A stretch of DNA of 26,907 nucleotides from IMG/VR virus record IMGVR_UViG_2778261676_000004; one strand, given 5' to 3'. This DNA comes from a virus (lineage: Duplodnaviria > Heunggongvirae > Uroviricota > Caudoviricetes). Positions 4,402 to 21,254 of this stretch are shown piece after piece. The position numbers and the translations under genes are program-made. The first letter of the stretch is position 1, and the number at the start of each line of letters is the position of its first letter. The notes beneath the pieces are model-generated. The model worked only from the letters and a program-made list of their open reading frames with translations, made no database searches and was not told where the DNA came from.

Positions 4402-4481
4402 TTTGTTTTAACCTCATTACAGATTTAAGGGTGAACAAATCCCTGCCATTGCTGGCATATAAAAATGAAACCGGATATTAA

Positions 4482-4685
4482 TTACGGTGCTGTTTTAAGT
4501 CCTGCCGGGATTTCGTTATTGTCCATGCGAATAACTTTATCAACCGGATAACAGTTGCCGGGAATTTTCTGTTCCGCTGCGGCAGCCATGCATTCTTTCA
4601 TTGAGTCATGTATACCAATAACAAGATCGACTGGTTCGCCTGTATTAAGAAAAACTGTCAGAACGAGTGCAAATGCTGTATTCAT
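4482..4685 (-). CDS. YdfD-like small protein (DUF1482-type)
   Basis: Internal ATG giving MNTAFALVLTVFLNTGEPVD...; hydrophobic N-terminus; lies immediately downstream of dicB as ydfD does in the K-12 Qin prophage (recalled, not searched). Confidence 0.6.
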   Translation of the reverse strand: MNTAFALVLTVFLNTGEPVDLVIGIHDSMKECMAAAAEQKIPGNCYPVDKVIRMDNNEIPAGLKTAP

Positions 4686-4687
4686 TG

Positions 4688-4870
4688 TCAGCGTCCTTTT
4701 TGCATCAGGCGTAAACGGGCCAGCATTGAAACAATGCATATTTGATTTAATAGCTCCCGTTCGTGTTTTCTCTTATTAATGGCATCTTCAGTAAATACAG
4801 GGTTACTGATTCTGACACCAATTTCAAAACAACCTTCAGACGTATTGACGTTTGGTAATAACGTTTCCAT
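4688..4870 (-). CDS. dicB: DicB-like cell division inhibitor
   Basis: 60 aa, METLLPNVNTSEGCFEIGVRISNPVFTEDAINKRKHERELLNQICIVSMLARLRLM, near-identical to my recollection of E. coli DicB (MKTLLPNVNTSEGCFEIGV...); RBS GAGGACG upstream. Confidence 0.8.
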   Translation of the reverse strand: METLLPNVNTSEGCFEIGVRISNPVFTEDAINKRKHERELLNQICIVSMLARLRLMQKGR

Positions 4871-4887
4871 TATCGCGTCCTCAACAA

Positions 4888-5049
4888 TGAATTTTGTGAT
4901 GCGGTGCCTGGTGCCTCCAGGTGACGTTAACTAGTTAACAATTAACGCCGGATACAGAGAACCCACCCATAAGAACCAATACGGAAGTCAACTGGCCTTT
5001 TTAACTGTTCCGCGTGCGCTGAGCCGCATTCACCGCATCACAAAATTCA
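4888..5049. repeat. Perfect 19-bp inverted repeat pair (4888-4906 and 5031-5049) enclosing about 124 nt
   Basis: TGAATTTTGTGATGCGGTG at 4888-4906 and its exact reverse complement CACCGCATCACAAAATTCA at 5031-5049; interior holds the 14-bp palindrome GTTAACTAGTTAAC (4926-4939) and CCTGGTGCCTCCAGG. Confidence 0.85.
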
Positions 5050-5051
5050 CT

Positions 5052-5108
5052 TTAAAAAGGACGGACATCAGCCAGCAATGAAACTGATGCCGCCAAAAGG
5101 TAATCAAC
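5052..5108 (-). ncRNA. dicF: DicF-like small RNA (approximate boundaries)
   Basis: Minus-strand sequence ...TTTTGGCGGCATCAGTTTCATTGCTGGCTGATGTCCGTCCTTTTTAAAGTGAATTTTGTG resembles my recollection of the DicF terminator hairpin and flank; sits between ydfB-like and dicB as in the dicB operon. Ends not determined. Confidence 0.45.
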
Positions 5109-5764
5109 ATGGGTTGTTGCAGCGGGGTTGTCACTCAGGCGTATGGTCAACCTGACAACCCGGTGTCCTCAACAGGGGGAAGGAATAACCCCGCCATACG
5201 TACCGCCGCGCCATTTCGCGGAGTGCCACAACCGGAAGCGCACGGTCGAATTAAATTTAACGACACCGTACAGTGAGACGAACTTCGCCGTGCGCTTTCG
5301 CGTTATGCCCTGACTTTTCAGGGATATATCCTTTCAGTAAACTGTCAGTGCCGGATTCTTATCCGTGTCCGGCGCACGACCACATGTGGCAGCATGTTGG
5401 TCTCCATTTTTAACCCAGAACCTCAATGGAGGATAAAATGTCAGACAAGTTAATTAACCCATTTACCTATCCATCTGTTGCAGCTTTGAACTTAACAGTT
5501 GAGTTAATTCGGGCTGGCAAAATGTCATCCCCTTCAGAGGCGGCTAATTCAGTTATTACAATCCGCAATATATTAAAAGAAGAAAAACAAGCCGCTATGG
5601 AGAAGACTGATAAAGAGCAATAAAGGCTTCTCTGATTTCTTGAGCCAGTTTTTTAGCTGGATCTACCTTTTCTGTCTCCCCGTTCAAAATGAGAGATTTC
5701 AGTGTTTCTGCGGCGATTTTCTGAGTGTCTGGAGGTAAATCTTTAAATTCCATCTTTAACCCCG

Positions 5765-5893
5765 TTAGTCGATAGATTTTGTCGAACTGGAAAGCGCCTG
5801 TTTAAACTCACTGAAGCTGAGAGCCTCTTCGCCTTCGGCAAGGTCTTCGAAGTATTCTTCGTAAGCCTTTTCCATGATTGTGTCGAAATCCAT
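5765..5893 (-). CDS. YdfB-like small protein
   Basis: 42-aa ORF MDFDTIMEKAYEEYFEDLAEGEEALSFSEFKQALSSSTKSID read by hand from the reverse complement (below the track length cutoff); size and position match ydfB of the dicB operon. Confidence 0.55.
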   Translation of the reverse strand: MDFDTIMEKAYEEYFEDLAEGEEALSFSEFKQALSSSTKSID

Positions 5894-5894
5894 A

Positions 5895-6050
5895 TCACTC
5901 ACCTGAGTTTCTTTCCAGCCAGCGACGGGCACCATTTTCGGTTTTAAACGTTTTGCTTTTGGTATACGTCATCGCGGTGAACGTGCCGTCCTGGTTGGGA
6001 AACACGCCGTACACCAGAGATTCGTTGTTGCCAAGATCGATAGTATCCAT
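5895..6050 (-). CDS. YdfA-like small protein (DUF1391-type)
   Basis: Internal ATG of the 78-aa track ORF gives 51 aa MDTIDLGNNESLVYGVFPNQDGTFTAMTYTKSKTFKTENGARRWLERNSGE, matching my recollection of YdfA; first gene downstream of the repressor on the minus strand. Confidence 0.6.
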   Translation of the reverse strand: MDTIDLGNNESLVYGVFPNQDGTFTAMTYTKSKTFKTENGARRWLERNSGE

Positions 6051-6256
6051 GCTGACCTCATTTCCCCTTAACGCCGGGGTAGCGGAACAAAAACCTGCTG
6101 CATAGTTATTAAAGTTGAACCCTGCCGTCATGTTCTTACGCCTCGGGCTGGCTACTTAACCCCTGACCACTGCCTGGTAACTCGAAGTATTGCCCTGCAT
6201 TCTGTGGGGCGGGGTGAGGGAATGAATGAAGTTTAGGAAAATGAACATTTAAGGTC

Positions 6257-6278
6257 AATGTTTTTTTATCAAAACATT
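6257..6278. promoter_or_regulatory. Operator-like inverted repeat downstream of the repressor gene (OL-like position)
   Basis: AATGTTTT (6257-6264) and AAAACATT (6271-6278) are exact reverse complements separated by 6 nt; a third AACATTT copy at 6244-6250. Confidence 0.3.
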
Positions 6279-6342
6279 TTAAGCAGGCAGCTGTTACGCC
6301 ATCACTACGATGGCATACAGTTAATCAAATAGATGAGGTTGG

Positions 6343-6981
6343 TTAAATATCTTGTTGAATTTTAAAGCATACTCCCAATATGCAAGATAGATCATCCAGC
6401 ATAATTGAAGGGTAGCGAGGATTCGTGGGGACTAAAAGAATATCCGGCCCTTCTATCTCCAGTTTGCGAATGACAGGCGTTGTGGTCCCTTTGGGTAAGG
6501 CAAGGACAATATTTCCTGGTTGTACGATTCGATCGGGATCAACAAAAACTGTTGAACCATTTGGGATGGAAACTCCACCACCAGATGTCGACATACTGTC
6601 ACTCTCTAGAACAACAGCAAAGGTATTGGCCGGGATTTCTCCGACAAGCTGCACACAAGAGGTTATTGAGGAATTTTTCATATAATCACTCCAGCTTGCT
6701 GCCTGCTGAAGTGATAGTAGCGGAACCGTTTTTATCGGCGGTAAAGATAGATCAAGCGAATCACCTGTATTTAACTCTCCTCCATTAAGAAGCCAATTTT
6801 CGTTTACTTTCAATATCTTTGCCAGTGAGCTTATGTAACGCGAGGACGGCGCTCCTCCACCGTTCATCCATTGACTTACGGAGCCTTTTGATGCGCCAGT
6901 GGCATTGACAAGGTCTTTGCCTTTCAAGTTTAGCGCATGCATACGTTGGGTTATGCGTTCAGATATTGTTTGCTTGTTCAT
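6343..6981 (-). CDS. cI-like repressor: HTH domain plus S24 LexA-like autopeptidase domain
   Basis: 212 aa; N-terminal HTH-like region; C-terminal VVLESDSMSTSGG (Ser of the S24 Ser-Lys dyad in a GDSM-like context) and later VIRKL; divergent from a Cro-like gene. Confidence 0.85.
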   Translation of the reverse strand: MNKQTISERITQRMHALNLKGKDLVNATGASKGSVSQWMNGGGAPSSRYISSLAKILKVNENWLLNGGELNTGDSLDLSLPPIKTVPLLSLQQAASWSDYMKNSSITSCVQLVGEIPANTFAVVLESDSMSTSGGGVSIPNGSTVFVDPDRIVQPGNIVLALPKGTTTPVIRKLEIEGPDILLVPTNPRYPSIMLDDLSCILGVCFKIQQDI

Positions 6982-7072
6982 GTTTTGATTTTAAAACACA
7001 GATGGTTTTGTTTCTTGACTTTCTTTGGTTTTGATTATTAAACTTTTGGCGTTCAGTTTTATGGAGCGAATC
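6982..7072. promoter_or_regulatory. Divergent promoter/operator region between the repressor and cro-like genes (OR-like)
   Basis: 91-bp AT-rich spacer with direct repeats GTTTTGATT (6982-6990, 7028-7036), GGTTTTG copies and a TTGACT -35-like hexamer at 7015-7020. Confidence 0.35.
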
Positions 7073-7315
7073 ATGAAAAAATCAGAAGTATTAGGCTATT
7101 TTGGCGGAGTTGTTAAAACAGCCGCCGCTCTAGGAACGTCAAAAACCACAGTCAGCATGTGGGGGGAAGACGTTCCGTGGAAATGGGCGTTGCTAATTCA
7201 GGCAGTCACTGCCGGGGCGCTCAAATATGAGTTACACATACCGACGGTTGTCATTCCCGGTTCTGATCATAATCCGCCTTCTAACCAAGGGGGGATTCAT
7301 GAAAATCAAGCATGA
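7073..7315 (+). CDS. Cro-like HTH regulator
   Basis: Internal start MKKSEVLGYFGGVVKTAAALGTSKTTVSMW...; small HTH protein divergent from the repressor; overlaps the next gene by 17 nt. Confidence 0.65.
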   Translation: MKKSEVLGYFGGVVKTAAALGTSKTTVSMWGEDVPWKWALLIQAVTAGALKYELHIPTVVIPGSDHNPPSNQGGIHENQA

Positions 7316-7724
7316 ACACATCCGCATGGCGATGAATGCCTGGGCACGTCCTGATGGCGAAAAAGTTCCGGCAGCTGGAATAACCCAGGCTTATTTTGAG
7401 TTGGGTATGACGTTTCCTGAACTGTACGACGACAGCCATCCGGACGCCCTGGCTCGCAATACCCAGAAAATTTTCCGCTGGATAGAGAAAGACACCCCTG
7501 ATGCAGTTGAAAAAATTCAGGCGTTGTTACCAGCGATCGAAAAGGCAATGCCACCTTTGCTGGTGGCCAGAATGCGCAGCCACAGTTCAGCTTATTTTCG
7601 GGAGCTGGTGGAGACGCGGGAGCGGCTGGTGAGAGACGCTGATGATTTTGTCGCAGTGGCAATCGCCGGTTTCAATCAGATGAACCGTGGTGGCCCGGCA
7701 GGAAATGCTGTGGCAGTACATTGA
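7299..7724 (+). CDS. YdaT-like / CII-like regulatory protein
   Basis: ATG at 7299 preceded by AAGGGGGG; MKIKHEHIRMAMNAWARPDGEKVPAAGITQAYFELGMTF... resembles the YdaT family found after cro in Rac-type prophages (recalled). Confidence 0.7.
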   Translation: MKIKHEHIRMAMNAWARPDGEKVPAAGITQAYFELGMTFPELYDDSHPDALARNTQKIFRWIEKDTPDAVEKIQALLPAIEKAMPPLLVARMRSHSSAYFRELVETRERLVRDADDFVAVAIAGFNQMNRGGPAGNAVAVH

Positions 7725-7795
7725 CTGACAATAGCCATATCGAATCGCTTCCGGCAACTCGTGAGTAAAAAGATTCGGTATCAGAAGAGGTGAGT

Positions 7796-8866
7796 ATGGC
7801 TAACGCCTGGCTCAGATTATGGCATGACATGCCAAATGACCCTAAGTGGCGAACAATTGCCAGGGTGTCAGGGCAGCCAATTGCAACAGTGATGGCAGTG
7901 TATATCCACCTCCTGGTGAGCGCGTCACGAAATGTCACGCGAGGTCACATTGATGTCACGACAGAAGATTTGGCAAGTGCGCTCGACGTGACAGAAGAGG
8001 TAATTGATTCAATTTTGCAGACGATGCAGGGGCGGGTACTTGATGGTGATTTAATCACTGGATGGGAAAAACGCCAGGTGCTTAAAGAGGACAACGGCAA
8101 TATTTCGCAAACCGCAAAATCTCCTGCAGAGCGCAAGAGGGCGCAGCGAGAGAGGGAAAGAAAGCGGGAACAAAATGGCGATTGTCACGGCGCGTCACGA
8201 AATGTCACGCACATGTCACGACGAGTCACGACAGATAAAGATACAGATAAAGATACAGATCAAGAAGATCAAAACACTATGGTCCATGGCGTAAAAAACG
8301 CCACGAACCAGGCAGGGGATGTTCAGACCGTCAATCTTGGTCAGCCAGCAGGCACGACACCGGAAGCCGATTCAGCGTATGCGCTGAAAGCCGATTCGGG
8401 CGCTGTGCAGCAGGTGATGACCGCAAGGCTGGAGCAATCACACCAACTGCAGCAGCCCGAAGCCGATTCCGCCATTCAGCGGGAAGCCGATCGGGTAGTC
8501 CCGGAAAACACCGGGCAGTCTGTGGGACGAGTGGATTATCCGGATGTGTTCGAACAGGTCTGGCGGGAGTACCCGTTGCGTGCCGGAGCAAACCCGAAGA
8601 AATCAGCTTTCAGTGCCTGGAAGGCCAGATTACGCGAGGGGGTGCCACCAGAGGCCATGCTGGATGGCGTGAGGCGTTACGCAAGATACTTGGCGGCTAC
8701 CGGGAAAACGGGAACGGAATTTGTTCAGCGAGCGACGACGTTTTTTGGACCGGACCGGAATTTTGAGAACCCCTGGTTGCTCCCGGTAAGCGGCACGAAC
8801 AACCAGCGTTGTGTGAATCATATTTCTGAACCGGATAACGAAATTCCGCCGGGCTTCAGGGGGTAA
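7796..8866 (+). CDS. Replication initiator, phage O-like (Phage_rep_O-type N-terminal domain)
   Basis: ATG at 7796 with GAGG 6 nt upstream; N-terminus MANAWLRLWHDMPNDPKWRTIARVSGQ typical of O-like replisome organisers; iteron arrays inside the coding sequence. Confidence 0.85.
   Translation: MANAWLRLWHDMPNDPKWRTIARVSGQPIATVMAVYIHLLVSASRNVTRGHIDVTTEDLASALDVTEEVIDSILQTMQGRVLDGDLITGWEKRQVLKEDNGNISQTAKSPAERKRAQRERERKREQNGDCHGASRNVTHMSRRVTTDKDTDKDTDQEDQNTMVHGVKNATNQAGDVQTVNLGQPAGTTPEADSAYALKADSGAVQQVMTARLEQSHQLQQPEADSAIQREADRVVPENTGQSVGRVDYPDVFEQVWREYPLRAGANPKKSAFSAWKARLREGVPPEAMLDGVRRYARYLAATGKTGTEFVQRATTFFGPDRNFENPWLLPVSGTNNQRCVNHISEPDNEIPPGFRG
7921..7962. repeat. Iteron-like cluster 1: four GTCACG/GTCACA repeats at about 10-bp spacing
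   Basis: GTCACG at 7924, 7934 and 7955 and GTCACA at 7944; helical-turn periodicity. Confidence 0.6.
8181..8257. repeat. Iteron-like cluster 2 (candidate ori): five GTCACG repeats then a GATAAAGATACA tandem duplication
   Basis: GTCACG at 8184, 8194, 8204, 8215 and 8225 (10-11 bp spacing), followed by GATAAAGATACAGATAAAGATACAGAT; lies in the apparent inter-domain linker of the O-like protein, as the origin does in lambda O. Confidence 0.65.
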
Positions 8867-8906: not shown

Positions 8907-9329
8907 GTGGCAAAAGTTTTTACACAAGAAGAGCGGGAAAAAATTAAAGGACAGGTTGTTGAACTCGTACGCCAGAGTGGGCGTGAGACGTTACGGCAAC
9001 TGGAAGTCAAGACAGGTGCGACAAGATATCTGATGAGCGTTCTCGCAAGAGAGCTGGTTGCCAGCGGCGATGTATACAACTCTGGTTACGGGTTATTCCC
9101 GTCTGAACAGGCGCGTAAGGACTGGCAAAATGCCCGTAAAAAGCTCTCAAGGGCAAAGCTGAAGAAACCATCTGCGGTTGATCCGGACCTTATCTGGTCA
9201 TTACCTGACGGAGAAATACGTCGCTACGACAGGCGTCAGAACATAATCTGTCGCGAGTGCCGGAAGAGTGAAGTTATGCAGCGCATATTGTCGTTTTATC
9301 AGGGTGATGTTCGGTATTTATTGAAGTGA
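8907..9329 (+). CDS. Hypothetical protein following the O-like gene (GTG start)
   Basis: 140-aa ORF; GTG start with GGAGG upstream; basic and Cys-containing C-terminus (CRECRK); occupies the position where a P/DnaC-like helicase loader would normally lie. Confidence 0.55.
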   Translation: MAKVFTQEEREKIKGQVVELVRQSGRETLRQLEVKTGATRYLMSVLARELVASGDVYNSGYGLFPSEQARKDWQNARKKLSRAKLKKPSAVDPDLIWSLPDGEIRRYDRRQNIICRECRKSEVMQRILSFYQGDVRYLLK

Positions 9330-9530
9330 CGAGATTAAAGTGCATTAGTTCAGATGCAAATTGACATTTTGTGGCACAGGGTAGAGCTAGCGTGGTTGTC
9401 CGCTTTGTGCCAGGAGCGGACGTCTAGTTCGCTGAACCACAAAAAGTCGTTTCTAGTTATATTACTGGCTCATTAGTATCTTTATGCGATAATATTTCAT
9501 ACAACCAAAATTATGATGAAGGGAGTTCAA

Positions 9531-10652
9531 ATGGCAATTACGGTCTATTCTCGTACATTCAAAAAGGAATTGGACATGGTTCAATTGTTAAACCATTACT
9601 CATCAGATAACGCACTCAATTTCAGTGATTTCAAGGAATTTGTTGCCTTTGATGCAGAGTGCCCAATTTGCAATGTAAGCGGTGCGATTGTTGTTTCAGA
9701 AGGTTATTCGAAAAGAACAAATAAGATAGTCAGCCAATCTCATTTTTCGTTTAGAACAAAAGACGGAACTGATGCACACAAAGTATTTTGCGATCATTAC
9801 AGTGGTAATGATAAGCAAATAGATTCATCAAGGGATGGTTTTATAAAATTCGGCACCTCAGGTTCTGAGATTACAAGTATAATTCGCGAGCTTGTATGTA
9901 GAGGTATTGAACATGATGAGTTCAATCAGGAAGATATTCGAAACATGCGGCAATGGTTTACAGAATTACGCCAGTCAGGCACTTTTTCTGTTAACTATAG
10001 CCCTCACATGATCAATCTAATAAGGGCCAGCATGTATTCCCGTAAGGGAGAAAGTAAATATATTGTAGATGAAGAGAGGAAAAATAAATCCTGGTTTGAT
10101 ATAAACGATGAAGTGTATCGTTCGTTAAGATTCAAATATCCATCATTGATGATCGACATGACTAATGAAAATAATTCTGTTTTCTATAATCTTGTGAATA
10201 GTACCACATTTACTAAACAAGCACATCGATTAGTAGCACGAGATCGAGGTTATCAGGTTTATGATAGAAGGTTGCTTAAAGAAAAATATGAAGCAACGAT
10301 AAGAGTTGCACAAAAAATAACCAGGCATCACGAATTTCTTTTTAGGAAAATCAGGGGTATATCCGCTGTTAAAAAAAATAACCCCCTTTTGGCTGTATCT
10401 GCCTTGCTTCTTTTTGTCTCGGACTGGAATGAAACAACTGCAATCAACAAATTCATCAAATTGTGTGGTGTAGGGAAATCTAAAAATAATGATGAGGGGA
10501 ATGTAATTGGCTTAAATCCCTTTATTCATTACGATGTCTGGAATGTTATTCATCAACTTAAGGATTTAATGGTTACACTTCCAGACTTCTCAAATCTTGA
10601 TGAAGAATTTGACAGAGAAAAATCCAGATTAATTGAACTTTATAAGCTCTAA
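9531..10652 (+). CDS. Hypothetical protein, cargo gene A (no family recognised)
   Basis: 373 aa from ATG 9531 with AAGGGAG 5 nt upstream; strongly AT-rich coding sequence against a roughly balanced phage backbone; possible metal-binding motifs ECPICN and HKVFCDHY; no Walker A or nuclease motif seen. Confidence 0.8.
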   Translation: MAITVYSRTFKKELDMVQLLNHYSSDNALNFSDFKEFVAFDAECPICNVSGAIVVSEGYSKRTNKIVSQSHFSFRTKDGTDAHKVFCDHYSGNDKQIDSSRDGFIKFGTSGSEITSIIRELVCRGIEHDEFNQEDIRNMRQWFTELRQSGTFSVNYSPHMINLIRASMYSRKGESKYIVDEERKNKSWFDINDEVYRSLRFKYPSLMIDMTNENNSVFYNLVNSTTFTKQAHRLVARDRGYQVYDRRLLKEKYEATIRVAQKITRHHEFLFRKIRGISAVKKNNPLLAVSALLLFVSDWNETTAINKFIKLCGVGKSKNNDEGNVIGLNPFIHYDVWNVIHQLKDLMVTLPDFSNLDEEFDREKSRLIELYKL

Positions 10653-11265
10653 CATAAACTAGCAGGCTGCGTATACAGTCTGCTAATTTTCATAGTAAAG
10701 ACTTCATGCTTCAGTCTCGAGTTGGAGCTATCCGGCACACATCACCCAGGCAATTCAACCGAAATTTTTCATGGGGGGTAGAGAAGTTTTGTCTCGAAGA
10801 TTTGCTTTACAGCATACTAATCATTGAACCTCTGTTGAACCATAAGAAACTGGCAAGCACAATCCGTTGCTTGGGCATTGAATTCGACGATGCGTCGTAT
10901 AGCTCTGACTTGAACAAAACATAAGGTTTTTAGGGCTGCAACAGCACCTCTGTGTCATAGGCGGAAGTTAACAAACATTAAAATCTCTAAATCTGTAGGG
11001 ATCAGACTCCTTCTATAAAAGGATACTGTTCATATCCTTAGTTGTATATAGGTGTGTTTAGAGTATTAGGATGCTAGTTTTGAAAATTAATTTTTTAAAC
11101 ATATTGAATTTTTTAAGAATTGGGAATAGTGTATAGCTTTGTCATGGCGGATTTTTTCTCTTCACGTATTTATTTGAACACTACTTCTTGCACCTGCAAG
11201 GTTACAATATCGTGTAAATTTGTTCACAAAGACATAGATTATAATTTTTACTTAAAGGAAATTCA

Positions 11266-12519
11266 ATGTCAAAAAATCTCCCGGTTTTATTAAGCTCGCC
11301 ATCAACAACTAATTTTCCTGCAACAGTTAATACTGAAATAGAATTCCTTTCGCAAGCTAGAAAGTTGTTAGATTCTGGCTTCCCTGATCATGCTCTTTTA
11401 GATATATGGAATGCATCCATTCATAATCTTAGGCGGCGAATTGAGGCTTATGGTTTAGACTTATTCCTTTCCGCAATAAAGGATGATAGTGGTCGTAAAA
11501 AATATGATAAAGATGGTGAAACAATAAACGAGAGATGGTCAGGTGTAGATGATTTAGTGCTAATAAGTGGAGCCACCAAATTAGGGGTTCTGCATAAGAA
11601 AGCTGGAAAATCATTAGAAATGATCAATTGGATGAGAAACCATGCCTCTCCAGCCCATGCAAGTGATAGTAAAGTAGAGTCTGAGGATGTGTTTGCTTTG
11701 GCTCTTATGCTCCAGAAGAATTTATTCGAATCTGATATGCCAGACCCTGGACATTCGCCATCTGGATTATTTGAACCCATAAAAAAATCTGAACTATCAA
11801 TTGAGAGCATAGACTTACTTAAAGATCAAATAAGAGCATTTAAGCAAGCTGATATAAGAATAACATTTGGATTTTTATTGGATTTAATAACTAAGGGGGA
11901 AAATCCTGCTTATGTTAATGCTAGCAAGTTGTTTGAACAAGCATGGGAAAGATCTAATGATGACCTTAAAAAAACAGCGGGGGAAAGATATCACTCATTT
12001 ATGCTGGAGCCCGAATCGGATACAAGTGAGGATAAAGGAGCAAAAATAAGAATTTTAGAGACTTTAGTAAAAGTTAATGGTGTGAAATTTATACCTGATG
12101 CTGCTAGGGCAAGTTTATACAGACATGCGGTTAAACAGCTAGCTAAAGCTAAGGATACATCTTACGGCTGGAATGATGAAGAAAGAGCAGCCAAGGCACT
12201 TATACAATTTGGACCTCATGTTCCATCTATTGCTTTTGAAGATGTATATCAAGAAATACTTACTGTTTGGGTGGGGAATTACTGGGGAAGATCTGATGCA
12301 CATTTAGTACTTCAACCATTTTTAGATGTGTTAAATAGTAATCAATTGATGGCTCTCTCACGGTTGTTCGTGGAGAATGAAAGAGCAAATTCAGAACTGG
12401 TGTCATCAAGGCCCAAAAGAAGAGCAATAGAATTACTTGAGATAATAAAAAATAATCTAACAATTCAAGCAAGCATTGATGAAATTGATAGGATCATTTC
12501 TGAAATTGATAAAATGTAA
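11266..12519 (+). CDS. Hypothetical protein, cargo gene B (no family recognised; possible HEPN-like R-x6-H motif)
   Basis: 417 aa; ATG 11266 with AGGA upstream; AT-rich; motif WMRNHASPAH (nt 11635-11658) fits the HEPN R-x(4-6)-H pattern, but this is a weak single-motif match. Confidence 0.85.
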   Translation: MSKNLPVLLSSPSTTNFPATVNTEIEFLSQARKLLDSGFPDHALLDIWNASIHNLRRRIEAYGLDLFLSAIKDDSGRKKYDKDGETINERWSGVDDLVLISGATKLGVLHKKAGKSLEMINWMRNHASPAHASDSKVESEDVFALALMLQKNLFESDMPDPGHSPSGLFEPIKKSELSIESIDLLKDQIRAFKQADIRITFGFLLDLITKGENPAYVNASKLFEQAWERSNDDLKKTAGERYHSFMLEPESDTSEDKGAKIRILETLVKVNGVKFIPDAARASLYRHAVKQLAKAKDTSYGWNDEERAAKALIQFGPHVPSIAFEDVYQEILTVWVGNYWGRSDAHLVLQPFLDVLNSNQLMALSRLFVENERANSELVSSRPKRRAIELLEIIKNNLTIQASIDEIDRIISEIDKM

Positions 12520-13152
12520 TTTATTTGCAATTAAGCCATGCTTTTTAGGTGGCTTATTTTTTTTGAATCTACTACTTATATTGATATTAGCAATGTAATT
12601 GCTAAAGTATTCCTAGCCCACTATTCATCTAAATATGGTTGTCGAAAGGCCCGCTTCTCGCTCAAAGCGGACTAGAAGGTTAGCTTGCGTCGGACTTGGC
12701 GTATTTAAAGAAGTGCTGGTGGTGACTGGTTGTTGTGTTCCATTTCTACAGAACAAAATCACAGAAACTATACCCAATAGTTGTATCTCATCAATGATGA
12801 GACAGCCTCATATTTATCAGGACTGGTGTACGTCCAATACAGGAGGTTGTCGTGCTGGTTCTCAAATGTGCGCTGGCTATTGCAGCTGTAATGGCAATTT
12901 ATTGTCTTGCTGTTGTTCTTATGGATCGCCTTTCTGATTGATTTTATATTGGCGAGGTAACGGGAGTTAAGTAGAATGGCTGCGGGTGCTTGAGGCTATC
13001 TGTCTCAGGCATGAACACCAAAGGCAGATAGAGAAAAGCCCCAGTTAACATTACGCGTCCTGCAAGACGCTTAACATTAATCTGAGGCTCAATCTATGAA
13101 CGGCAAATCTAGGTTAGCCTCTTACGTGCCGAAAGGCAAGGAGAAGCAGGCT

Positions 13153-13308
13153 ATGAAGCAGCAAAAGGCGATGTTAATCGCCCTGATCGTCATCTGTTTA
13201 ACCGTCATAGTGACGGCACTGGTAACGAGGAAAGACCTCTGCGAGGTACGAATCCGAACCGGCCAGACGGAGGTTGCTGTCTTCGTGGACTACGAATCTG
13301 AGAAGTAA
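13153..13308 (+). CDS. Hok/Gef-family membrane toxin (type I toxin-antitoxin)
   Basis: 51 aa MKQQKAMLIALIVICLTVIVTALVTRKDLCEVRIRTGQTEVAVFVDYESEK, very close to my recollection of Gef/HokC; RBS AAGGAGAAG; in-frame upstream extension from 13096; 9-bp stem-loop GGCGGGAGA/TCTCCCGCC at 13318-13339 and a T8 run at 13391-13398 downstream. Confidence 0.8.
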   Translation: MKQQKAMLIALIVICLTVIVTALVTRKDLCEVRIRTGQTEVAVFVDYESEK

Positions 13309-13534
13309 GAGTGACCAGGCGGGAGAGTAATCTCCCGCCACCTCTGATGTGTCGGCATCCTCAACGCACCCGCGCTTAACCCTCTTGGCGTTTTTTTTGC
13401 TTTCAGATAATAAATTTACCAAAATGGTTTACAAAATCATTTTTTATGGTAATTTATTAGTCATGAAGTCTTCATCACAGGTTGTGCTTCGAAAATAGGC
13501 AGCCTGTTACTTATAGCGAATCGAGGAATTAACT

Positions 13535-13894
13535 ATGGCACTCACTGAATTCGGTAAGGCCGTTAGAAAAGCGAGGATAGATACCGACTGCACATTGCTT
13601 ACGATGGCCCAAGAACTGGGAGTAACTTCAGCTTTTCTGAGCGGTTTAGAAACAGGCAGTAAGAAAATCCCCAAAAAATGGGTAAAAGAGATTCAGGCTT
13701 TTTTCCTGAAAAGAGGTTATGAGATTAATAATCTTCAGGAATTGGCTGATGTATCTAATCAGTTTGTTTCCCTTGATGGATTGTCGCAAAATCAGCAAAT
13801 GTTGGTTGCTGGTTTTGCTAAATCCCCATTAACACCAGAGCAGTTAAAGCGAATAGCAGAGTTGATGAAAAGTATTAATCATGTTGAGGGATGA
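13535..13894 (+). CDS. HTH XRE-family transcriptional regulator
   Basis: 119 aa; N-terminal HTH-like TLLTMAQELGVTSAFLSGLETG; ATG with GAGGA RBS; stop immediately before the metallopeptidase gene. Confidence 0.8.
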   Translation: MALTEFGKAVRKARIDTDCTLLTMAQELGVTSAFLSGLETGSKKIPKKWVKEIQAFFLKRGYEINNLQELADVSNQFVSLDGLSQNQQMLVAGFAKSPLTPEQLKRIAELMKSINHVEG

Positions 13895-13897
13895 TCG

Positions 13898-14380
13898 TTG
13901 GAACAATCAGCTTACACATTACGTGGAAATCGTGTTGCACCAATGAGTATTGTTGATATAACAACTCGCGCTGTTAACTATAGCGCGATCTTCGACCTTA
14001 AAACGTTGAAAAGAAAAAAGCGGTTAGACCATGCATTTGAGTTGTTGAGTGAATATGGGATAACGCTCAATATCGTTGAGGATCGTGCGTGGACTAAAGC
14101 TACATATGATTTGACATCTGGGCATTACGATCCAATTACACTTACAATTAGTGTGCCGAATCATACATTTGAGTTGGCATGTAAAGGTGATAGAGAAGCA
14201 TTATTTGTGCTCTTTCATGAAATCGGACATTTGGTGTTGGGGCATAGAGCGTTATTTCACAGTTCCAATAAACCACCTTCGCAAATTGAAGATGCTGAAT
14301 GGCAAGCAGATTTGTTTGCTGAGGTGGTTTTGCGCGAATTAGGATTTTATATGGATCAACTATCATTTGACTTTTTATAA
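13898..14380 (+). CDS. ImmA/IrrE-family zinc metallopeptidase (HEXXH)
   Basis: 160 aa; HEIGHLVLGH contains the HEXXH zinc-binding motif; apparent TTG start 4 nt after the upstream stop, alternative ATG at 13943. Confidence 0.8.
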   Translation: MEQSAYTLRGNRVAPMSIVDITTRAVNYSAIFDLKTLKRKKRLDHAFELLSEYGITLNIVEDRAWTKATYDLTSGHYDPITLTISVPNHTFELACKGDREALFVLFHEIGHLVLGHRALFHSSNKPPSQIEDAEWQADLFAEVVLRELGFYMDQLSFDFL

Positions 14381-14403
14381 AAAAGCCCTGCTGTAACAGG
14401 GCT
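14376..14403 (-). terminator. Hairpin with a T-run on the minus strand (terminator for a leftward transcript, or bidirectional)
   Basis: AGCCCTG / CAGGGCT stem with loop CTGTAA; the A-run on plus (14370-14383) is a T-run on the minus strand. Confidence 0.4.
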
Positions 14404-14543
14404 TAGGATGGAAAGTCCGATAACTTTCCAGTGCAGATGGAGAACCCCACCGCCACACTTGGATTTGACAGATGCAAGTTTAGCGGTTCTCCCAACAAAT
14501 CGCAACCTGTATGGGGATACAGGTATGCAGGGACTTGCTTGTT

Positions 14544-14684
14544 ATGGCAATGAAAATCTGTAAGGAATGCGGAAAACCGTGCGAAATTATTTTTCGTTAT
14601 TCCGTTTGTATCAATGGAGTTATGCGATATGCGAGGAAGGGGCACCCTTTCCCGATTCCTGTTTGTGGTTGCTCCCGAACGTAG
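14544..14684 (+). CDS. Candidate small Cys-rich protein (46 aa)
   Basis: Hand-read ORF MAMKICKECGKPCEIIFRYSVCINGVMRYARKGHPFPIPVCGCSRT; C-x2-C ... C-x-C pattern suggests a zinc ribbon; no strong RBS; lies between two terminators. Confidence 0.25.
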   Translation: MAMKICKECGKPCEIIFRYSVCINGVMRYARKGHPFPIPVCGCSRT

Positions 14685-14705
14685 AGTTGCATAATGATCT
14701 AATCT

Positions 14706-14733
14706 AAACCCGCTTCGGCGGGTTTTTTGTTTT
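14706..14733 (+). terminator. Rho-independent terminator with TTCG tetraloop
   Basis: AAACCCGC TTCG GCGGGTTT followed by TTTTGTTTT. Confidence 0.75.
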
Positions 14734-14803
14734 ACGTATTCTGGTTTACAATCCACAGGCCAGCCTGAACAACTGGCACCTGCTGCGCCAGCAGAGACAA
14801 CCG

Positions 14804-15082
14804 ATGGCGCACGATACCAAATTACACAATTCTAATGATTCTGCTGTCTTTGCCAGCAGGTGCGGACGGCGTTTTCACGCATTCAAATCAGACTGGTTCC
14901 AGCATCCTCCATGCACTGAAGAGCAGGCTGAATGGATAATTCAGTGTTACCGCAGGCGTGGATACGAGGTTAAGAAAGCTCTTAGTCTCGACTATCGTCA
15001 CTGGATAATCTCAGTCAGACTCCCTTACTCCGAACGCCCACCGCGTCCGTCCCGCACATTCCAGCAACGGATCTGGAGGTAA
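14804..15082 (+). CDS. Hypothetical nin-region protein
   Basis: 92-aa ORF; stop at 15080-15082 directly before the GTG start of the next gene; weak RBS. Confidence 0.55.
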   Translation: MAHDTKLHNSNDSAVFASRCGRRFHAFKSDWFQHPPCTEEQAEWIIQCYRRRGYEVKKALSLDYRHWIISVRLPYSERPPRPSRTFQQRIWR

Positions 15083-15083
15083 C

Positions 15084-16133
15084 GTGCGGGTATTAGTGAC
15101 TCCTGAAATTGCTCACCGTCTGGGGATTGTACTTTTCAGGCCCGGTCCTGATGCGATGCCTTTGTTTATGCAGGGGCGTGTGCTGGTGGAGCCTGAACCG
15201 AAAAGCATGCGCAATCTGCCGCCCGGTGTCGTTCCTGCCGTTCGCCAGCCGCTGGCGGAAGATAAATCATTACTGCCATTTTTCAGCGATGAGCGGGTGA
15301 TTCGTGCTGCTGGTGGCACTGGTGCACTGTCTGACTGGCTGTTACGCCACGTTAAATCCTGCCAGTGGCCTCATGGAGACTATCACCATAGTGAAACCGT
15401 CATACATCGTTACGGTACCGGCGCAATGGTGTTGTGCTGGCACTGTGACAACCAGCTGCGTGACCAGACCTCCGAATCACTCGGGCAGCTTGCTCAACAA
15501 AATCTGACAGCCTGGATGATTGACGTCATACGTCACGCAATAAGCGGTACACAGGAGCGGGAATTATCGCTGGCTGAATTATCCTGGTGGGCGGTCTGTA
15601 ATCAGGTAGCGGACGCACTACCGGAGGTAGTATTACGTCGTTCTCTGGGGTTACGTGCGGAAAAAATCCGCTCTGTGTACCGCGAGAGCGACATCGTACC
15701 GGGAGAGCAGACAGCCACCAGCATACTGAAGCAGCGCACAAAAAATTTTGCGTCGTTGCCTCGCGCCCACCAGCAACCGAACCCACCACAGGAAAAGACG
15801 GTTGTAAGTATCACAGTTGATCCGGAGTCACCGGAATCTTTCATGAAGCGGCCTAAACGTCGTCGCTGGGTGAATGAGAAATACACGCGCTGGGTAAAAA
15901 CACAGCCGTGTACGTGTTGTGGTAAGCCAGCAGACGATCCCCATCACCTGATTGGTCACGGTCAGGGCGGAATGGGGACAAAAGCCCACGATATTTTTAC
16001 GTTGCCGCTGTGCCGGGAACATCACAACGAACTTCATGCAGATCCGCAGGCGTTCGAAGAAAAGCATGGTTCTCAGGTTGATTTAATTTTTCGTTTTCTT
16101 GATCACGCCTTTGCAACAGGCGTACTCGGATAA
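15084..16133 (+). CDS. DUF968-like prophage protein with C-terminal HNH-like Cys/His motif
   Basis: 349 aa; GTG start with GGAGG RBS; C-terminal CTCCGKPADDPHHLIGHGQGGMGTKAHDIFTLPLCREHHNELH resembles an HNH/zinc-finger nuclease signature; overall like YdfU-type proteins of E. coli prophages (recalled). Confidence 0.75.
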   Translation: MRVLVTPEIAHRLGIVLFRPGPDAMPLFMQGRVLVEPEPKSMRNLPPGVVPAVRQPLAEDKSLLPFFSDERVIRAAGGTGALSDWLLRHVKSCQWPHGDYHHSETVIHRYGTGAMVLCWHCDNQLRDQTSESLGQLAQQNLTAWMIDVIRHAISGTQERELSLAELSWWAVCNQVADALPEVVLRRSLGLRAEKIRSVYRESDIVPGEQTATSILKQRTKNFASLPRAHQQPNPPQEKTVVSITVDPESPESFMKRPKRRRWVNEKYTRWVKTQPCTCCGKPADDPHHLIGHGQGGMGTKAHDIFTLPLCREHHNELHADPQAFEEKHGSQVDLIFRFLDHAFATGVLG

Positions 16134-16897: not shown

Positions 16898-16927
16898 TTG
16901 ACCAGACACATTGTCCGGGGCTATATT
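16898..16927 (+). promoter_or_regulatory. Candidate late promoter (PR'-like) just downstream of Q
   Basis: TTGACC (16898-16903), 18-bp spacer, TATATT (16922-16927); followed by a structured leader and a hairpin terminator. Confidence 0.35.
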
Positions 16928-16987
16928 CCTCACGCGCCAGCAAAATCTGGCGTCGGGATTGGCGTCCCGGATGAAAAAGGCGACAAC

Positions 16988-17010
16988 AGACGCGCCAGCG
17001 TCTTTTTTAT
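16988..17010 (+). terminator. Leader terminator (tR'-like) downstream of the candidate late promoter
   Basis: AGACGC GCCA GCGTCT followed by TTTTTTAT. Confidence 0.55.
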
Positions 17011-17166
17011 TGTCGTTTGCACTGTCACATCTCAATGGTGGGCTGTGTGGGGGCGGAGCGATCCGCGCCGGTTCCTTTTTCCCGGTTACGCCAACCCTGC
17101 ACAGTTCACCACCATACTGATTGGCGTCAGCAGTGGTGATGATTCACATAGAAAAAGGATCATCCT

Positions 17167-17655
17167 ATGGCTATTCAAATCTCAGTTGAAACTCTTTCCC
17201 CGATCACCCATAACCAAATCCCTGTCATTACTACCGAGCTTTTGGCACAACTTTATGGCACCGAAACTAATAACATCAAAGTGAACTATACACGCAATGC
17301 CGAGCGTTTTGTTTGTGGGAAACACTACTTCAAATTGGAAGGGGCTGAGTTGCGGGAATTTAAGAACAAGGTTACTCAAAGTAACTTAGTTGCACCGCGT
17401 ACAAAGCACCTCATCCTCTGGACAGAACGCGGAGCAGCCCGTCACGCCAAAATGCTGGAAACCGATCAGGCGTGGGAAGTGTTCGAAAAACTGGAAGACT
17501 GTTATTTCAGCCAAAAACAACCACCAGCAGCACAAAACACCCCAACCCAAAATGATGGATGCGCATTACTGATCCACTTCGATAAACACGGTCAGGTCGA
17601 CTTCACGGAAAAACTACCCGCCGATGCGATGGTATGCACTCTGGAACGGTTTTAA
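17167..17655 (+). CDS. ORF6N-domain protein (antirepressor-like cargo)
   Basis: 162 aa; VITTELLAQLYGTETNNIKVNYTRNAERFVCGKHYFKLEGAELREFK fits the ORF6N pattern as recalled. Confidence 0.75.
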   Translation: MAIQISVETLSPITHNQIPVITTELLAQLYGTETNNIKVNYTRNAERFVCGKHYFKLEGAELREFKNKVTQSNLVAPRTKHLILWTERGAARHAKMLETDQAWEVFEKLEDCYFSQKQPPAAQNTPTQNDGCALLIHFDKHGQVDFTEKLPADAMVCTLERF

Positions 17656-19462: not shown

Positions 19463-20008
19463 ATGAAGTCGAAAGATGAAATTTTTGATGCTGTTCTTGG
19501 CAAAGAGGGCGGCTACGTCAACCACCCTGATGATAAAGGTGGTCCGACTAAATGGGGCATTACTGGAAAAGTTGCCCGTGCACACGGTTATCAGGGGGAT
19601 ATTCGTGACCTGACGCGTGGGCAGGCCCTCGAAATTCTTGAAGCGGACTACTGGTACGGGCCACGTTTTCACAAGGTTGCGAGCCTGTCTCCGGAGATCG
19701 CTGCTGAATTGTGTGATACCGGCGTAAACATGGGGCCGTCAGTGGCATCCAGAATGCTTCAGCGCTGGCTTAATGTATTTAACCAGAAAGGAGAGTTGTA
19801 TCCGGACATTGATGCAGATGGTTGTATCGGCCCACGTACCATTAATGCGTTACGCGCCTATTTGTCAAAACGTGGCAGGGATGGTGAGTTGGTGATTCTG
19901 ACAGCGCTAAACTGTACGCAGGGAGATCGCTACCTTGAACTGGCAGAAAAACGTGAGGCTAATGAATCGTTCGTGTATGGCTGGATGAAAGAGCGCGTGG
20001 TGGTGTAG
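19463..20008 (+). CDS. Endolysin, GH108-type lysozyme with C-terminal peptidoglycan-binding domain
   Basis: MKSKDEIFDAVLGKEGGYVNHPDDKGGPTKWGIT matches the GH108 N-terminal signature as recalled. Confidence 0.8.
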   Translation: MKSKDEIFDAVLGKEGGYVNHPDDKGGPTKWGITGKVARAHGYQGDIRDLTRGQALEILEADYWYGPRFHKVASLSPEIAAELCDTGVNMGPSVASRMLQRWLNVFNQKGELYPDIDADGCIGPRTINALRAYLSKRGRDGELVILTALNCTQGDRYLELAEKREANESFVYGWMKERVVV

Positions 20009-20325
20009 TTGGCATTAATGAGGCCAGTAAATCCAACCTGCGGTTAGCTTGTTATTAGACTTACCGAACAAGAAAAACGACTGGAGAAAGAGTTCGGTTT
20101 TTATACCAAACAAAGAGGAGAATATGAATCAGTGAGTACAGAGAAAAATCCTCGGCAGATCGTATAAATCTTCTTTTAAAGCCGTCCGTTATGAAAGGAA
20201 TAGAAAAGAAAGTAACTGCACGTCTTTATGTGACACGGTCTGCTTTTGCTATTTTTCTTTTGGAGGTTGTTATTTGCGCATCAAGTGCAGATAGAGTTGC
20301 CCATCGAGATGGGCAACTTATGATA

Positions 20326-20619
20326 TTATTGTGAGCAATATACCCGAGCTTCCAGCGGAGTATAAATGCCGAAAGTGATAAAACCGAGCAATCCATTTAC
20401 GAATGTTTGCTGGGTTTCAGTCTTAACAACTTTTTCTGCGCCACCACAAATTTTGGCTGCATCGACAGTTTTCTTCTGACCAATTCCAGAAACGAAGAAA
20501 TGATGAGTGATGGTTTCCTTCGGTGTTACTGTTGTCGGTTGGTTTTCAACAGTAAACGTCTGTTGAGCACATCCAGAGATAAGCAGGGCCAGCGTGAAAG
20601 TGAGTAGCGTTTTTTTCAT
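20326..20619 (-). CDS. bor: Bor/Iss-family outer-membrane lipoprotein
   Basis: 97 aa; MKKTLLTFTLALLISGCAQQTFTV ... ARVYCSQ nearly identical to my recollection of lambda Bor; lipobox LISGC; palindrome GTTGCCCATCGAGATGGGCAAC (20297-20318) just 3' of the stop. Confidence 0.9.
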   Translation of the reverse strand: MKKTLLTFTLALLISGCAQQTFTVENQPTTVTPKETITHHFFVSGIGQKKTVDAAKICGGAEKVVKTETQQTFVNGLLGFITFGIYTPLEARVYCSQ

Positions 20620-20843
20620 AGTGTTATTCCCGTTGTGTTTTTAAGGTTGTTGAATCGTATTTGTAGAAATTTAAACAAAACCTAAACAATGAGTTGAAAT
20701 CTCATATTTTTAATGTTTATTAAAGTATGCCAGATGTGCTGTATTTTCATTGTATTCCCGGATTAACTATGTCCTCAGTACCGACTGGTAACTCCTGTGT
20801 GGGAGTGCCGGATAGTGAGGGGGATTAAACCGGGCGATATGGT

Positions 20844-21254
20844 TTAGCGTGGAAAAAATTGTGTCGTGTTCTGAATGCTTTCGGTAAACAATAATGAGTT
20901 GTCAAAGGTATAGTAATACCTTTTGTGTTCATGGACATTTGTAACCCATCGGAAAACTCCAGCCTTAGCCAGATTTTCCCTGTATTCATGAAATGTGATT
21001 TCTCTTGATTTCAACTTATGAGAGTAAGTTTCTATAAGTCGCGTGTCTCTGCGAAATTTAACATTCACAACCTCCTCAAGTCCTTTTATTAACACTGCGT
21101 TATCATTTTTCAATACAACGTGAATATTACCTGTGGCTAAATAGTAAATGTAATGTGAGACATTGTGACGTTTTAGTTCAGAGTAAAATCGGTCACAGTT
21201 TAAATCTTTCCGCACTTGATCAAATATTTCTTTAAAAAGGGCAACCTGAGCCAT
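20844..21254 (-). CDS. YbcV-like (DUF1398-type) prophage protein
   Basis: 136 aa, the size I recall for DLP12 YbcV; lies between bor and the former packaging region as in lambdoid genomes. Confidence 0.65.

Follow-up and report, generated by a model that had tools for sequence, protein, structure and literature searches.

A lambdoid prophage region with two apparently exchangeable cargo slots, the first a putative site-specific landing pad

Introduction

The dif modules of Acinetobacter (pdif/XerCD, Rep_3 plasmids) are accessory modules bounded by short two-arm sites in inverse orientation; neighbours share a site, one arm belonging to each, and the modules shuffle between replicons (PMC6160057, PMC6449649, PMC13141974). 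Chromosomal integrons store defence systems, and their cassettes are often anti-phage (10.1101/2024.07.02.601686). For P2/P4 prophages and satellites, defence hotspots have been described that have a fixed position and highly variable AT-rich cargo rich in defence systems (PMC9122126, PMC13586616). Repetitive extragenic palindromes (REP), REPIN and CGTC-tagged palindromes are widespread in Proteobacteria and often occur as head-to-head dimers, among which heterodimers are preferred; no transposase is associated with the CGTC class, whose families have stems of 8-9 bp that begin with A/T pairs, and loops of 4-5 nt (PMC3733652). Here we analysed positions 9,330 to 14,803 of a 26,907-nucleotide stretch of viral DNA (the window; Caudoviricetes, IMG/VR record IMGVR_UViG_2778261676_000004), which is a Qin/Rac-type lambdoid prophage of Escherichia coli. 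Judged by sequence comparison, the region is a cargo hotspot with two variable slots parted by a conserved hok/sok locus. We consider it probable that slot 1 is a site-specific landing pad and that the contents of slot 2 form a single module.

As a rule, defence hotspots of prophages are recognised by conserved flanking genes alone, and the entry and exit of cargo are mostly unexplained. At slot 1, backbone and cargo meet at a fixed nucleotide position within a short palindrome, with which a specific and very widespread small recombinase is associated.

Results

Two variable slots in a conserved backbone

We compared the window with three relatives that have the same backbone (L001, L003 and L004), with the Qin prophage of K-12 (L253), with a non-phage island of the integrative and conjugative element (ICE) type (L002) and with E. 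coli SF-468 (L334). The DUF977-hok interval, slot 1, contains genes for a short-chain dehydrogenase/reductase (SDR), a WYL regulator and an integrase together with genes A and B in L001, a DUF3606 gene and three hypothetical genes in L003, a single 269-amino acid (aa) gene in L004, and flxA and relBE in K-12 Qin. The interval between hok and the 92-aa/DUF968 genes, slot 2, contains rem in L001 and K-12, XRE and ImmA genes in L003 and the window, and nothing in L004. Homology of the DUF977 side with L001, L003 and L004 extends to 9421-9423, which is the left breakpoint of slot 1; the right one is at 12653, where homology with L004 resumes. The breakpoints of slot 2 are at 13397-13404 and 14704. 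Alignment with related prophages, as proposed in a preliminary description of this DNA, gave the boundaries of two slots, both of which vary between relatives.

The windowed GC content was 0.33-0.40 at 9250-12750 and 0.40-0.46 up to about 14500, compared with 0.50-0.57 on both sides, which confirmed the AT-rich character noted earlier. The preliminary description had taken the region for one composite accessory island between lambdoid backbone genes, a hotspot that had accumulated several independent modules. The flanks are indeed backbone (DUF977 on the left, the 92-aa gene and DUF968 on the right), relatives with the same backbone hold different genes at both places, and the AT-rich DNA and gene content are real; the variable cargo occupies two slots, however, and not one island. 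The Hok/Gef locus, counted earlier as part of the island, is also real (Pfam HOK_GEF, Rfam sok) but is a backbone landmark, because it is present in all relatives inspected.

A megablast search of 5426 complete E. coli genomes found the flanks to be common and the window's arrangement in none. Genes A and B are present together in 13 of these genomes and the slot 2 insert in 36. The A and B block also occurs, with 99.8% identity, in the ICE-type island L002, and the shared part is exactly 9389-12673, from site to site.

Slot 1 lies between two facing palindromic sites of different type

The longest inverted repeat within 9200-15000 has arms at 9385-9419 and 12651-12685, and its core is a pair of 24-nt palindromic sites in inverted orientation. 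Slot 1 spans 9398-12672, with a T-type site on the DUF977 side and an A-type site on the hok side. Both sites consist of 8-nt arms flanking an 8-nt centre, which is TGTGCCAG in the T-type and TGAGCGAG in the A-type. A degenerate pattern of the site gave two matches in the window, exactly these two sites, with none expected, and it occurs in more than 120 IMG/VR contigs. Among 163 non-redundant elements, 68 were T..C and 73 were A..G; the types differ only at centre positions 11 and 14. The T-type site was found in 2870 of the 5426 E. coli genomes, at a median of one place per genome and a maximum of five.

The two types are strictly paired. Of 68 convergent pairs from E. coli and IMG/VR, 57 were T-A and none was T-T or A-A. 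The cargo inside these pairs formed 47 distinct clusters of 0.4-5.8 kb, mostly with a GC content of 0.32-0.46. Where cassettes abut in back-to-back doublets, 18 doublets were heterotypic and none was homotypic. At loci with the window's flanks, the T-type site was on the DUF977 side in 40 of 40 and the A-type site on the hok side in 40 of 41.

The junctions are fixed within the sites. In the 40 same-flank loci the sequence was constant up to site position 15, and divergence set in at position 16, where distinct cargo ends numbered 14 and 18. When the backbone was the same and the cargo different, positions 1-13 were nearly invariant and positions 16-28 variable; when the same cargo was found in different backbones, variation was confined to positions 4, 8, 9 and 14. 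By conditional entropy, positions 1-13 went with the backbone and 10-28 with the cargo, apart from small deviations at positions 9 and 14. This split between backbone and cargo places the putative exchange in the 8-nt centre. The C/T difference at position 4 between the window and the ICE is explained by the outer arms belonging to the backbone; end-to-end cassette pairing, considered from covariation at this position, was rejected, as pairs elsewhere mix C and T freely.

Both sites fold as 7-8-bp hairpins. Variable stem positions keep their pairing by wobble on the written strand, and G.T exceeds A.C at stem pairs 8/17 and 9/16. No E. coli dif match was found within three mismatches in the window, and the site consensus differs from dif throughout.

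The preliminary description had taken a different inverted repeat as the mark of the left edge. This repeat exists, with 17-nt arms that are 82% complementary, and it brackets the T-type site. The left arm, a decayed T-like remnant, belongs to the backbone and the right arm to the cargo, L002 having only the latter, and for this reason we judged the repeat fortuitous and not a boundary marker.

Related arrangements of sites were observed elsewhere. In K-12 Qin, a T/A pair at 4001 and 4994 flanks flxA, the T-type site lies inside the annotated open reading frame (ORF) ydfV, the relBE-hokD operon is found between the T/A pair and hokD, and the cassette is inverted relative to the window. In L002, a unit of a BCCT transporter and a DUF2254 gene lies between two T-type sites exactly 3673 nt apart (4328-8001), and this unit recurs in at least seven contigs (L025, L037, L050, L073, L097, L102, L114) beside different downstream cassettes.

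A small recombinase is associated with the T-type site

In L001, an element of 2534 bp (element X) is inserted exactly at the T-type site. It encodes an SDR, a WYL regulator and a 200-aa tyrosine recombinase (L001:6338-6940), and it is flanked at L001 4415 and 6967 by a direct repeat of 18 bp, TGTGCCAGGAGCGGACGT, equivalent to positions 9-26 of the site. The window has a single uninterrupted T-type site and represents the unoccupied state of the same target.

The recombinase consists of the Phage_integrase catalytic domain only, without an N-terminal domain, and matches Xer-type models weakly; an intact member is WP_024178309.1 of strain 2018-166. About 8000 proteins were related to it at 1e-10 or better, a total that probably includes tyrosine recombinases in general; the best 120 of them were mostly 200-203 aa long, 78-97% identical and distributed from Enterobacterales to Idiomarina and Cycloclasticus. 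One identical recombinase stands beside different cargo in different Proteus/Providencia genomes, and the enzyme was also found between arsenic- and copper-resistance modules of marine elements. In 39 of 50 IMG/VR loci, and likewise in the Proteus/Providencia and marine gammaproteobacterial loci, a GC hairpin (CAGGGCTG...CAGCCC) lies behind the stop codon of the recombinase gene and leads into the T core and then the inner arm, beyond which the sequences are no longer alike. A divergent subgroup of the recombinase (60-63% identical) has a co-varying core, CCGGCCA.

Slot 1 of the window itself contains a dead remnant of such a recombinase between genes A and B, which has lost the HxxR segment and has Cys in place of the catalytic Tyr. 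It is followed by a decayed recombinase-proximal site. In L334, a different prophage region, gene A and the remnant are followed by a DUF4365 gene in place of gene B. We read slot 1 as two probable stacked insertions, a unit of gene A and the dead recombinase ahead of the gene B unit. K-12 ydfW was considered as another remnant of the small recombinase and was rejected. We found no description of the site/recombinase system in the open-access literature by site sequence, protein accession or topic.

Genes A and B

The unknown cassette of the preliminary description comprises genes A and B, separated by a 613-bp AT-rich spacer. Neither gene matched Pfam, NCBIfam or PADLOC (PADLOC-DB version dated 2023), and PHROGs gave families of unknown function only.

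The gene A product has the conserved residues C50, C53, H77, H89 and C93, and its confidently predicted structure (predicted local distance difference test score 85.6) matched no fold. Its 82 homologues are mostly from Enterobacterales and have various neighbours; gene A occurs without gene B in L008, L009, L011 and L334. In a Pantoea ICE (L009/L010, 7001-9089), an FRG-domain protein starts at or just after the gene A stop codon, and in L334 (6831-7871) the partner is the DUF4365 protein. The varying partners hint that gene A encodes a common partner or sensor for exchangeable effectors.

Gene B carries the motif R124-N-H-A-S-P-A-H131 (11635-11658), which is of the Rx4-6H type, and R124 and H131 were invariant in 42 gene B sequences that are 57-94% identical to the query. 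The predicted structure has a four-helix HEPN fold, and gene B is predicted to encode a HEPN RNase; no curated HEPN family in Pfam, NCBIfam or PADLOC matched. The gene also stands alone in defence islands (L005, L006). For mobile cargo it is unusually conserved: its best homologues are mostly exactly 417 aa long and at least 57% identical across distant phyla. An obligate two-gene system of A and B was rejected, since each occurs without the other and in other genera.

In sister cassettes, 70 proteins matched 104 PADLOC models, including Tmn, PD-T7-1, PD-T7-5, PD-T4-2, NsnA, Pycsar, DarTG and several PDC candidates, to which Pfam added GmrSD, RelA/SpoT and several HEPN families. From this context, genes A and B may be anti-phage genes.

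The hok/sok locus and the slot 2 module

The sok match (Rfam RF01794, 12984-13158) scored 110 bits against a gathering score of 59 and lies upstream of and overlapping the toxin start; the hok match to Pfam HOK_GEF had E=1.1e-22 and 79.8 bits against a cut-off of 22.

Slot 2 spans 13405-14703. The pair of an XRE-type helix-turn-helix (HTH) gene and an ImmA metallopeptidase gene is probable on closer analysis: the Pfam scores are at or just below the cut-off (Peptidase_M78 21.7 bits against 22 for ImmA), the protease has the HEIGH motif, near-identical proteins bear corresponding names in RefSeq, and the L003 homologue, in the same module and in a region 92% identical, is named ImmA/IrrE there. 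The ImmA gene begins at 13898, right behind the end of the HTH ORF at 13894, and the two are adjacent in the same operon. The 380 nt that follow (14381-14760) had been described as a structured non-coding stretch. This holds for 14381-14543, a leader that shows no 3-nt periodicity in variability and has compensatory changes at 13 of 23 predicted pairs; 14544-14684 is instead a conserved ORF of 46 aa. Its codon-position variability (0.16/0.12/0.39) indicates purifying selection, and it is intact in 27 of 27 aligned sequences. The 46-aa protein matched no Pfam, NCBIfam or PHROG family and is unannotated in RefSeq. In about 48 contigs the DNA behind ImmA was conserved from end to end, also in those whose ImmA was no more than 50-60% identical.

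The XRE gene, ImmA gene, leader and 46-aa gene are kept together in these contigs and probably form one module. In the simplest reading, an XRE/ImmA repressor-protease switch would control the 46-aa gene. The terminator-like sequences that bound slot 2 (13374-13404 and 14704-14734) resemble each other, and the single copy in L004 aligns to both.

Neighbouring genes and RNA features

The upstream gene order is a cI-like repressor (6343-6981, minus strand), cro, a YdaT-like gene, a replisome organiser (7790-8866) and DUF977. From there the region contains gene A, the spacer, gene B, hok/sok, the XRE HTH gene, the ImmA-type protease gene and about 380 nt ending in a terminator (Table 1).

Rfam was run at gathering and at E-value thresholds. 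Within the region only sok matched; neither the hairpin sites nor the slot 2 leader did, and an rsmX match (26 bits; gathering score 56) was dismissed. A search for tRNA genes found none, and a sigma-70 promoter scan was uninformative (17 sites, 16 expected).

Elsewhere in the window, 16921-17116, just after Q, matched Rfam isrK (79 bits), the C4 antisense RNA (74 bits) and its a1/b1 targets (52 bits); it lies upstream of a 162-aa ORF (17167-17655) and resembles a c4-ant immunity module of the P1/P7 type. A full-length match to the Rfam IS009 RNA (225 bits) was found at 26669-26867. A second AT-rich stretch (20000-21250, GC 0.38-0.40) amid GC-rich blocks may be another cargo slot.

Table 1. 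Coordinates of the features of the cargo region and its flanks in the window.
Feature	Position	Strand	Basis
DUF977 gene, left backbone, last conserved gene of the replication module	8907-9329	+	Pfam DUF977 E=7e-30
Inverted repeat of the preliminary description, judged fortuitous; brackets the T-type site	9363-9448 (arms 9363-9379, 9432-9448)		
T-type site, left boundary of slot 1, GTCCGCTT/TGTGCCAG/GAGCGGAC(GTCT)	9398-9425 (24-nt core 9398-9421)	+	longest inverted repeat, pattern match
Gene A, 373 aa from RefSeq-type start (ORF from 9513, 379 aa)	9531-10652	+	orphan fold
Dead remnant of 200-aa Xer-like recombinase	10673-10924	+	tblastn, 46% identity to residues 100-191 of L001:6338-6940; DNA similarity
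Decayed recombinase-proximal site at junction of A unit and B unit, GGGCTGCAACAGCACCTC/TGTGTCAT/AGGCGGAAGTT	10933-10969	+	DUF4365 gene in place of gene B after this junction in L334
Gene B, 417 aa, N-terminal HEPN-like domain and all-helical C-terminal domain	11266-12519	+	predicted structure
A-type site, right boundary of slot 1, GTCCGCTT/TGAGCGAG/AAGCGGGC (minus-strand reading)	12649-12672	-	longest inverted repeat, pattern match
hok/sok type I toxin-antitoxin, backbone landmark	12984-13308 (hok coding sequence 13153-13308)	+	Rfam, Pfam; also in L001, L003, L004, K-12
XRE-type HTH protein, 119 aa, first gene of slot 2	13535-13894	+	HTH_3 19.7 bits (cut-off 23); PADLOC HTH_VI 1.4e-6
ImmA/IrrE-type zinc metalloprotease, 160 aa, HEIGH motif	13898-14380	+	phrog_87 metalloprotease 1.7e-15
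Conserved non-coding leader, three hairpins, the central one enclosing TTGACA	14381-14543	+	alignment of relatives
Unannotated 46-aa gene, four-Cys zinc-ribbon-like (MAMKICKECGKPCEIIFRYSVCINGVMRYARKGHPFPIPVCGCSRT)	14544-14684	+	conserved ORF
Intrinsic terminator closing slot 2	14706-14725	+	backbone homology resumes at 14704
92-aa gene (phrog_1212) and DUF968/HNH gene (15084-16133), right backbone; then RusA, Q	14804-16133	+	profile matches

The palindrome family outside E. coli prophages

The site belongs to a palindrome family, ATGTCCGC-N10-GCGGACAT. High copy numbers of the site were seen only in Alphaproteobacteria; the palindrome family as such was observed at high copy in metagenome-assembled genomes of Alphaproteobacteria, Betaproteobacteria and Acidobacteria (genome-contig loci L133-L252, e.g. 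L211, L207, L155, L156 and L168). Tandem units lie between ordinary operons such as those for ABC-transporter binding proteins and cytochrome oxidase, and translation of the tandem palindromes gives a recurrent spurious peptide, V-R-F-x-P-x-A-D-I. Chance was rejected as the origin of the alphaproteobacterial matches, as those loci hold many copies each.

On the chromosomes of Erwinia mediterraneensis (L176, 548-4100) and Ewingella americana (L162), back-to-back T/A doublets about 1.7 kb apart part operons of ArsR+ACT+ABM, AraC+LysE and phytase-like genes. In Erwiniaceae and Yersiniaceae, then, the site system organises DNA outside phages too.

Discussion

A model for slot 1 and its alternatives

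We propose that slot 1 is a landing pad bounded by facing T and A sites. Cargo would be swapped by breakage and joining within the site centre; the backbone would keep the outer arm, and the inner arm would move together with the cargo. The T site probably serves as an attB-like target of Xer-like tyrosine recombinases of about 200 aa. These enzymes are encoded on small cassettes, with a T-core half-site of their own close behind the stop codon. In the window, the unit of gene A and the recombinase, now dead, would have inserted at the T site ahead of unit B. The fixed junctions, the strict site pairing, the pair of empty and occupied sites and the association of recombinase and site all support such a site-specific mechanism, akin to that of dif modules or integrons. 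We infer that the recombinase catalyses the exchange; T...A cassettes that carry no integrase would presumably move as well.

More tentatively, and with somewhat less than an even chance, the sites and enzyme may form an integron-like cassette platform. Such a platform would combine a catalytic-domain-only recombinase of about 200 aa, a 3'-proximal site made up of the GC hairpin and T core, and 24-nt lox-like sites of two heterospecific types around the cargo, and would operate in gammaproteobacterial prophages, ICEs and chromosomes. Gene A, gene B and the slot 2 module would then be new candidates for defence or abortive infection. The corollary, which we regard as possible to the same limited degree, is that lambdoid prophage hotspots are stocked with defence genes by natural insertion and exchange of cassettes. 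The alphaproteobacterial amplification of the palindrome family hints at a much older and wider system.

Lambdoid phages swap modules through homologous recombination. The best surviving alternative, which we nevertheless consider unlikely, is ordinary lambdoid mosaicism. In this view, REP- or terminator-like hairpins would contribute to exchange only as some 24 nt of shared sequence, at which RecA- or Red/RecET-type recombination could join co-resident elements. It would suit palindromes that act as extragenic repeats in Alphaproteobacteria and Erwinia, as well as a recombinase that is missing from most cassettes. The exchange points, however, are confined to the central 7-8 nt and are not spread over 24 nt or over kilobases of shared backbone. 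Mosaicism also does not account for strict T/A pairing (57 against none), for the 18-bp direct repeat around the recombinase-bearing insert, for a cognate half-site core that co-varies with the enzyme, or for sites that are low-copy in E. coli.

A quite improbable alternative is breakage provoked by the palindrome itself: SbcCD or a resolvase such as RusA would cut the hairpin or cruciform, and repair would join heterologous DNA at its centre. The junctions do map to the hairpin loop, a phage RusA is encoded just downstream in the backbone, and the excess of G.T over A.C in the stem fits single-strand folding. Breakage leaves unexplained why the sequence of arms and centre is conserved across orders, why there are two separate types of centre that pair strictly, and why a half-site is linked to the recombinase; the ICE context of L002 has no RusA nearby.

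Slightly less probable still is a role at the RNA level, in which the hairpins would serve, for example, to process, stabilise or insulate cargo transcripts and would lie at the boundary only secondarily. In favour of this role, both sites form hairpins with stems kept by wobble on the written strand. The sites are on opposite strands, however, and therefore one transcript cannot carry both in the wobble-tolerant sense; Rfam gave no match, and the DNA direct repeat and fixed junctions need a DNA process. Finally, that the region is conserved core of the phage lineage and not accessory is scarcely credible: hok/sok and the flanking backbone are kept in thousands of genomes, but the cargo of either slot is in few complete genomes, and relatives carry other genes in both slots, which refutes this idea for the cargo.

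Several observations weigh against the landing-pad model and the assignments attached to it. The evidence is all comparative, and no recombination was observed. The loci (at least 120) were fetched from a redundant collection with a pattern that favours canonical sites. By tblastn, the recombinase is present in 4 of 133 loci, most T...A cassettes being without it, and no enzyme is linked to the A-type site. The palindrome family is abundant in Alphaproteobacteria and Acidobacteria, in direct tandem units of 45 or 91 nt; the alphaproteobacterial copies sit between ordinary or housekeeping operons, look REP-like and are unexplained by a phage cassette system, and in Erwinia and Ewingella doublets lie between small accessory operons. 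As for the cargo, genes A and B match zero PADLOC defence families, the HEPN assignment of gene B comes from a predicted structure only, with Pfam empty, and a DNA operator would account for the palindromic covariation of the slot 2 leader no less than an RNA fold would.

If the landing-pad model is true, it would explain how defence genes turn over so rapidly in lambdoid prophages and ICEs. The T/A sites would then be a simple sequence signature for mining new cargo, and the system a compact natural means of cassette exchange with possible use as a genetic tool. The locus nominates gene A, gene B and the XRE/ImmA/small-ORF module as defence candidates.

Comparison with known systems

As in dif modules, slot 1 cargo is bounded by inversely oriented sites with one arm per neighbour. 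Unlike the 11-6-11 XerC/XerD sites, the sites here are 8-8-8 near-palindromes without dif similarity, a dedicated 200-aa recombinase is linked to them, and the hosts are Enterobacterales prophages and ICEs.

With integrons (IntI, attI, attC) the system shares a tyrosine recombinase with its own proximal site, imperfect palindromes as boundaries, stackable cassettes and anti-phage cargo. It differs in that the recombinase is about 200 aa long, has the catalytic domain only and has its site 3' of the gene; the cassette sites are 24 nt long, of two sequence types and in inverted pairs, and the cassettes have their own promoters and terminators and may hold several genes. An identity with attC (57-141 nt, one orientation) was rejected for sites of 24-28 nt, two types and inverted pairs. 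No IntI-type integrase was found in the window, where the sole recombinase trace is the remnant of the 200-aa type.

The P2/P4 hotspots, as far as the text searched describes them, likewise have a fixed position in temperate phages and variable AT-rich cargo, here found in Qin/Rac-type lambdoid prophages. They are defined by flanking genes, and the same text names no dedicated recombination sites or recombinase.

Like REP/REPIN and CGTC sequences, the sites are short palindromes that form dimers with a heterotypic preference; unlike them, they have an 8-nt centre, occur at a median of one per E. coli genome and mark cargo junctions. Membership of REP/REPIN was rejected on this copy number and because no transposase stands beside the sites in the loci inspected. 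The published CGTC REP families, which the palindromes resemble, were likewise rejected as an identity because their stem and loop geometry differs.

In slot 2, an XRE repressor gene followed by an ImmA/IrrE-type metalloprotease gene beside a candidate regulated gene recalls ImmR/ImmA, CapH/CapP and DdrO/IrrE, and the pair weakly matched capH and capP in PADLOC. Unlike those switches, the putative output here is a 46-aa zinc-ribbon protein behind a conserved structured leader of 160 nt.

Engineered cassette exchange with heterospecific lox/FRT sites offers a further parallel to slot 1, with its inverted sites that combine the same arms with different 8-nt centres. We use this likeness as a working analogy, in which the incompatibility of T and A and a shared enzyme are putative. 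If it holds, intramolecular excision would be blocked and exchange with a matching donor would be allowed.

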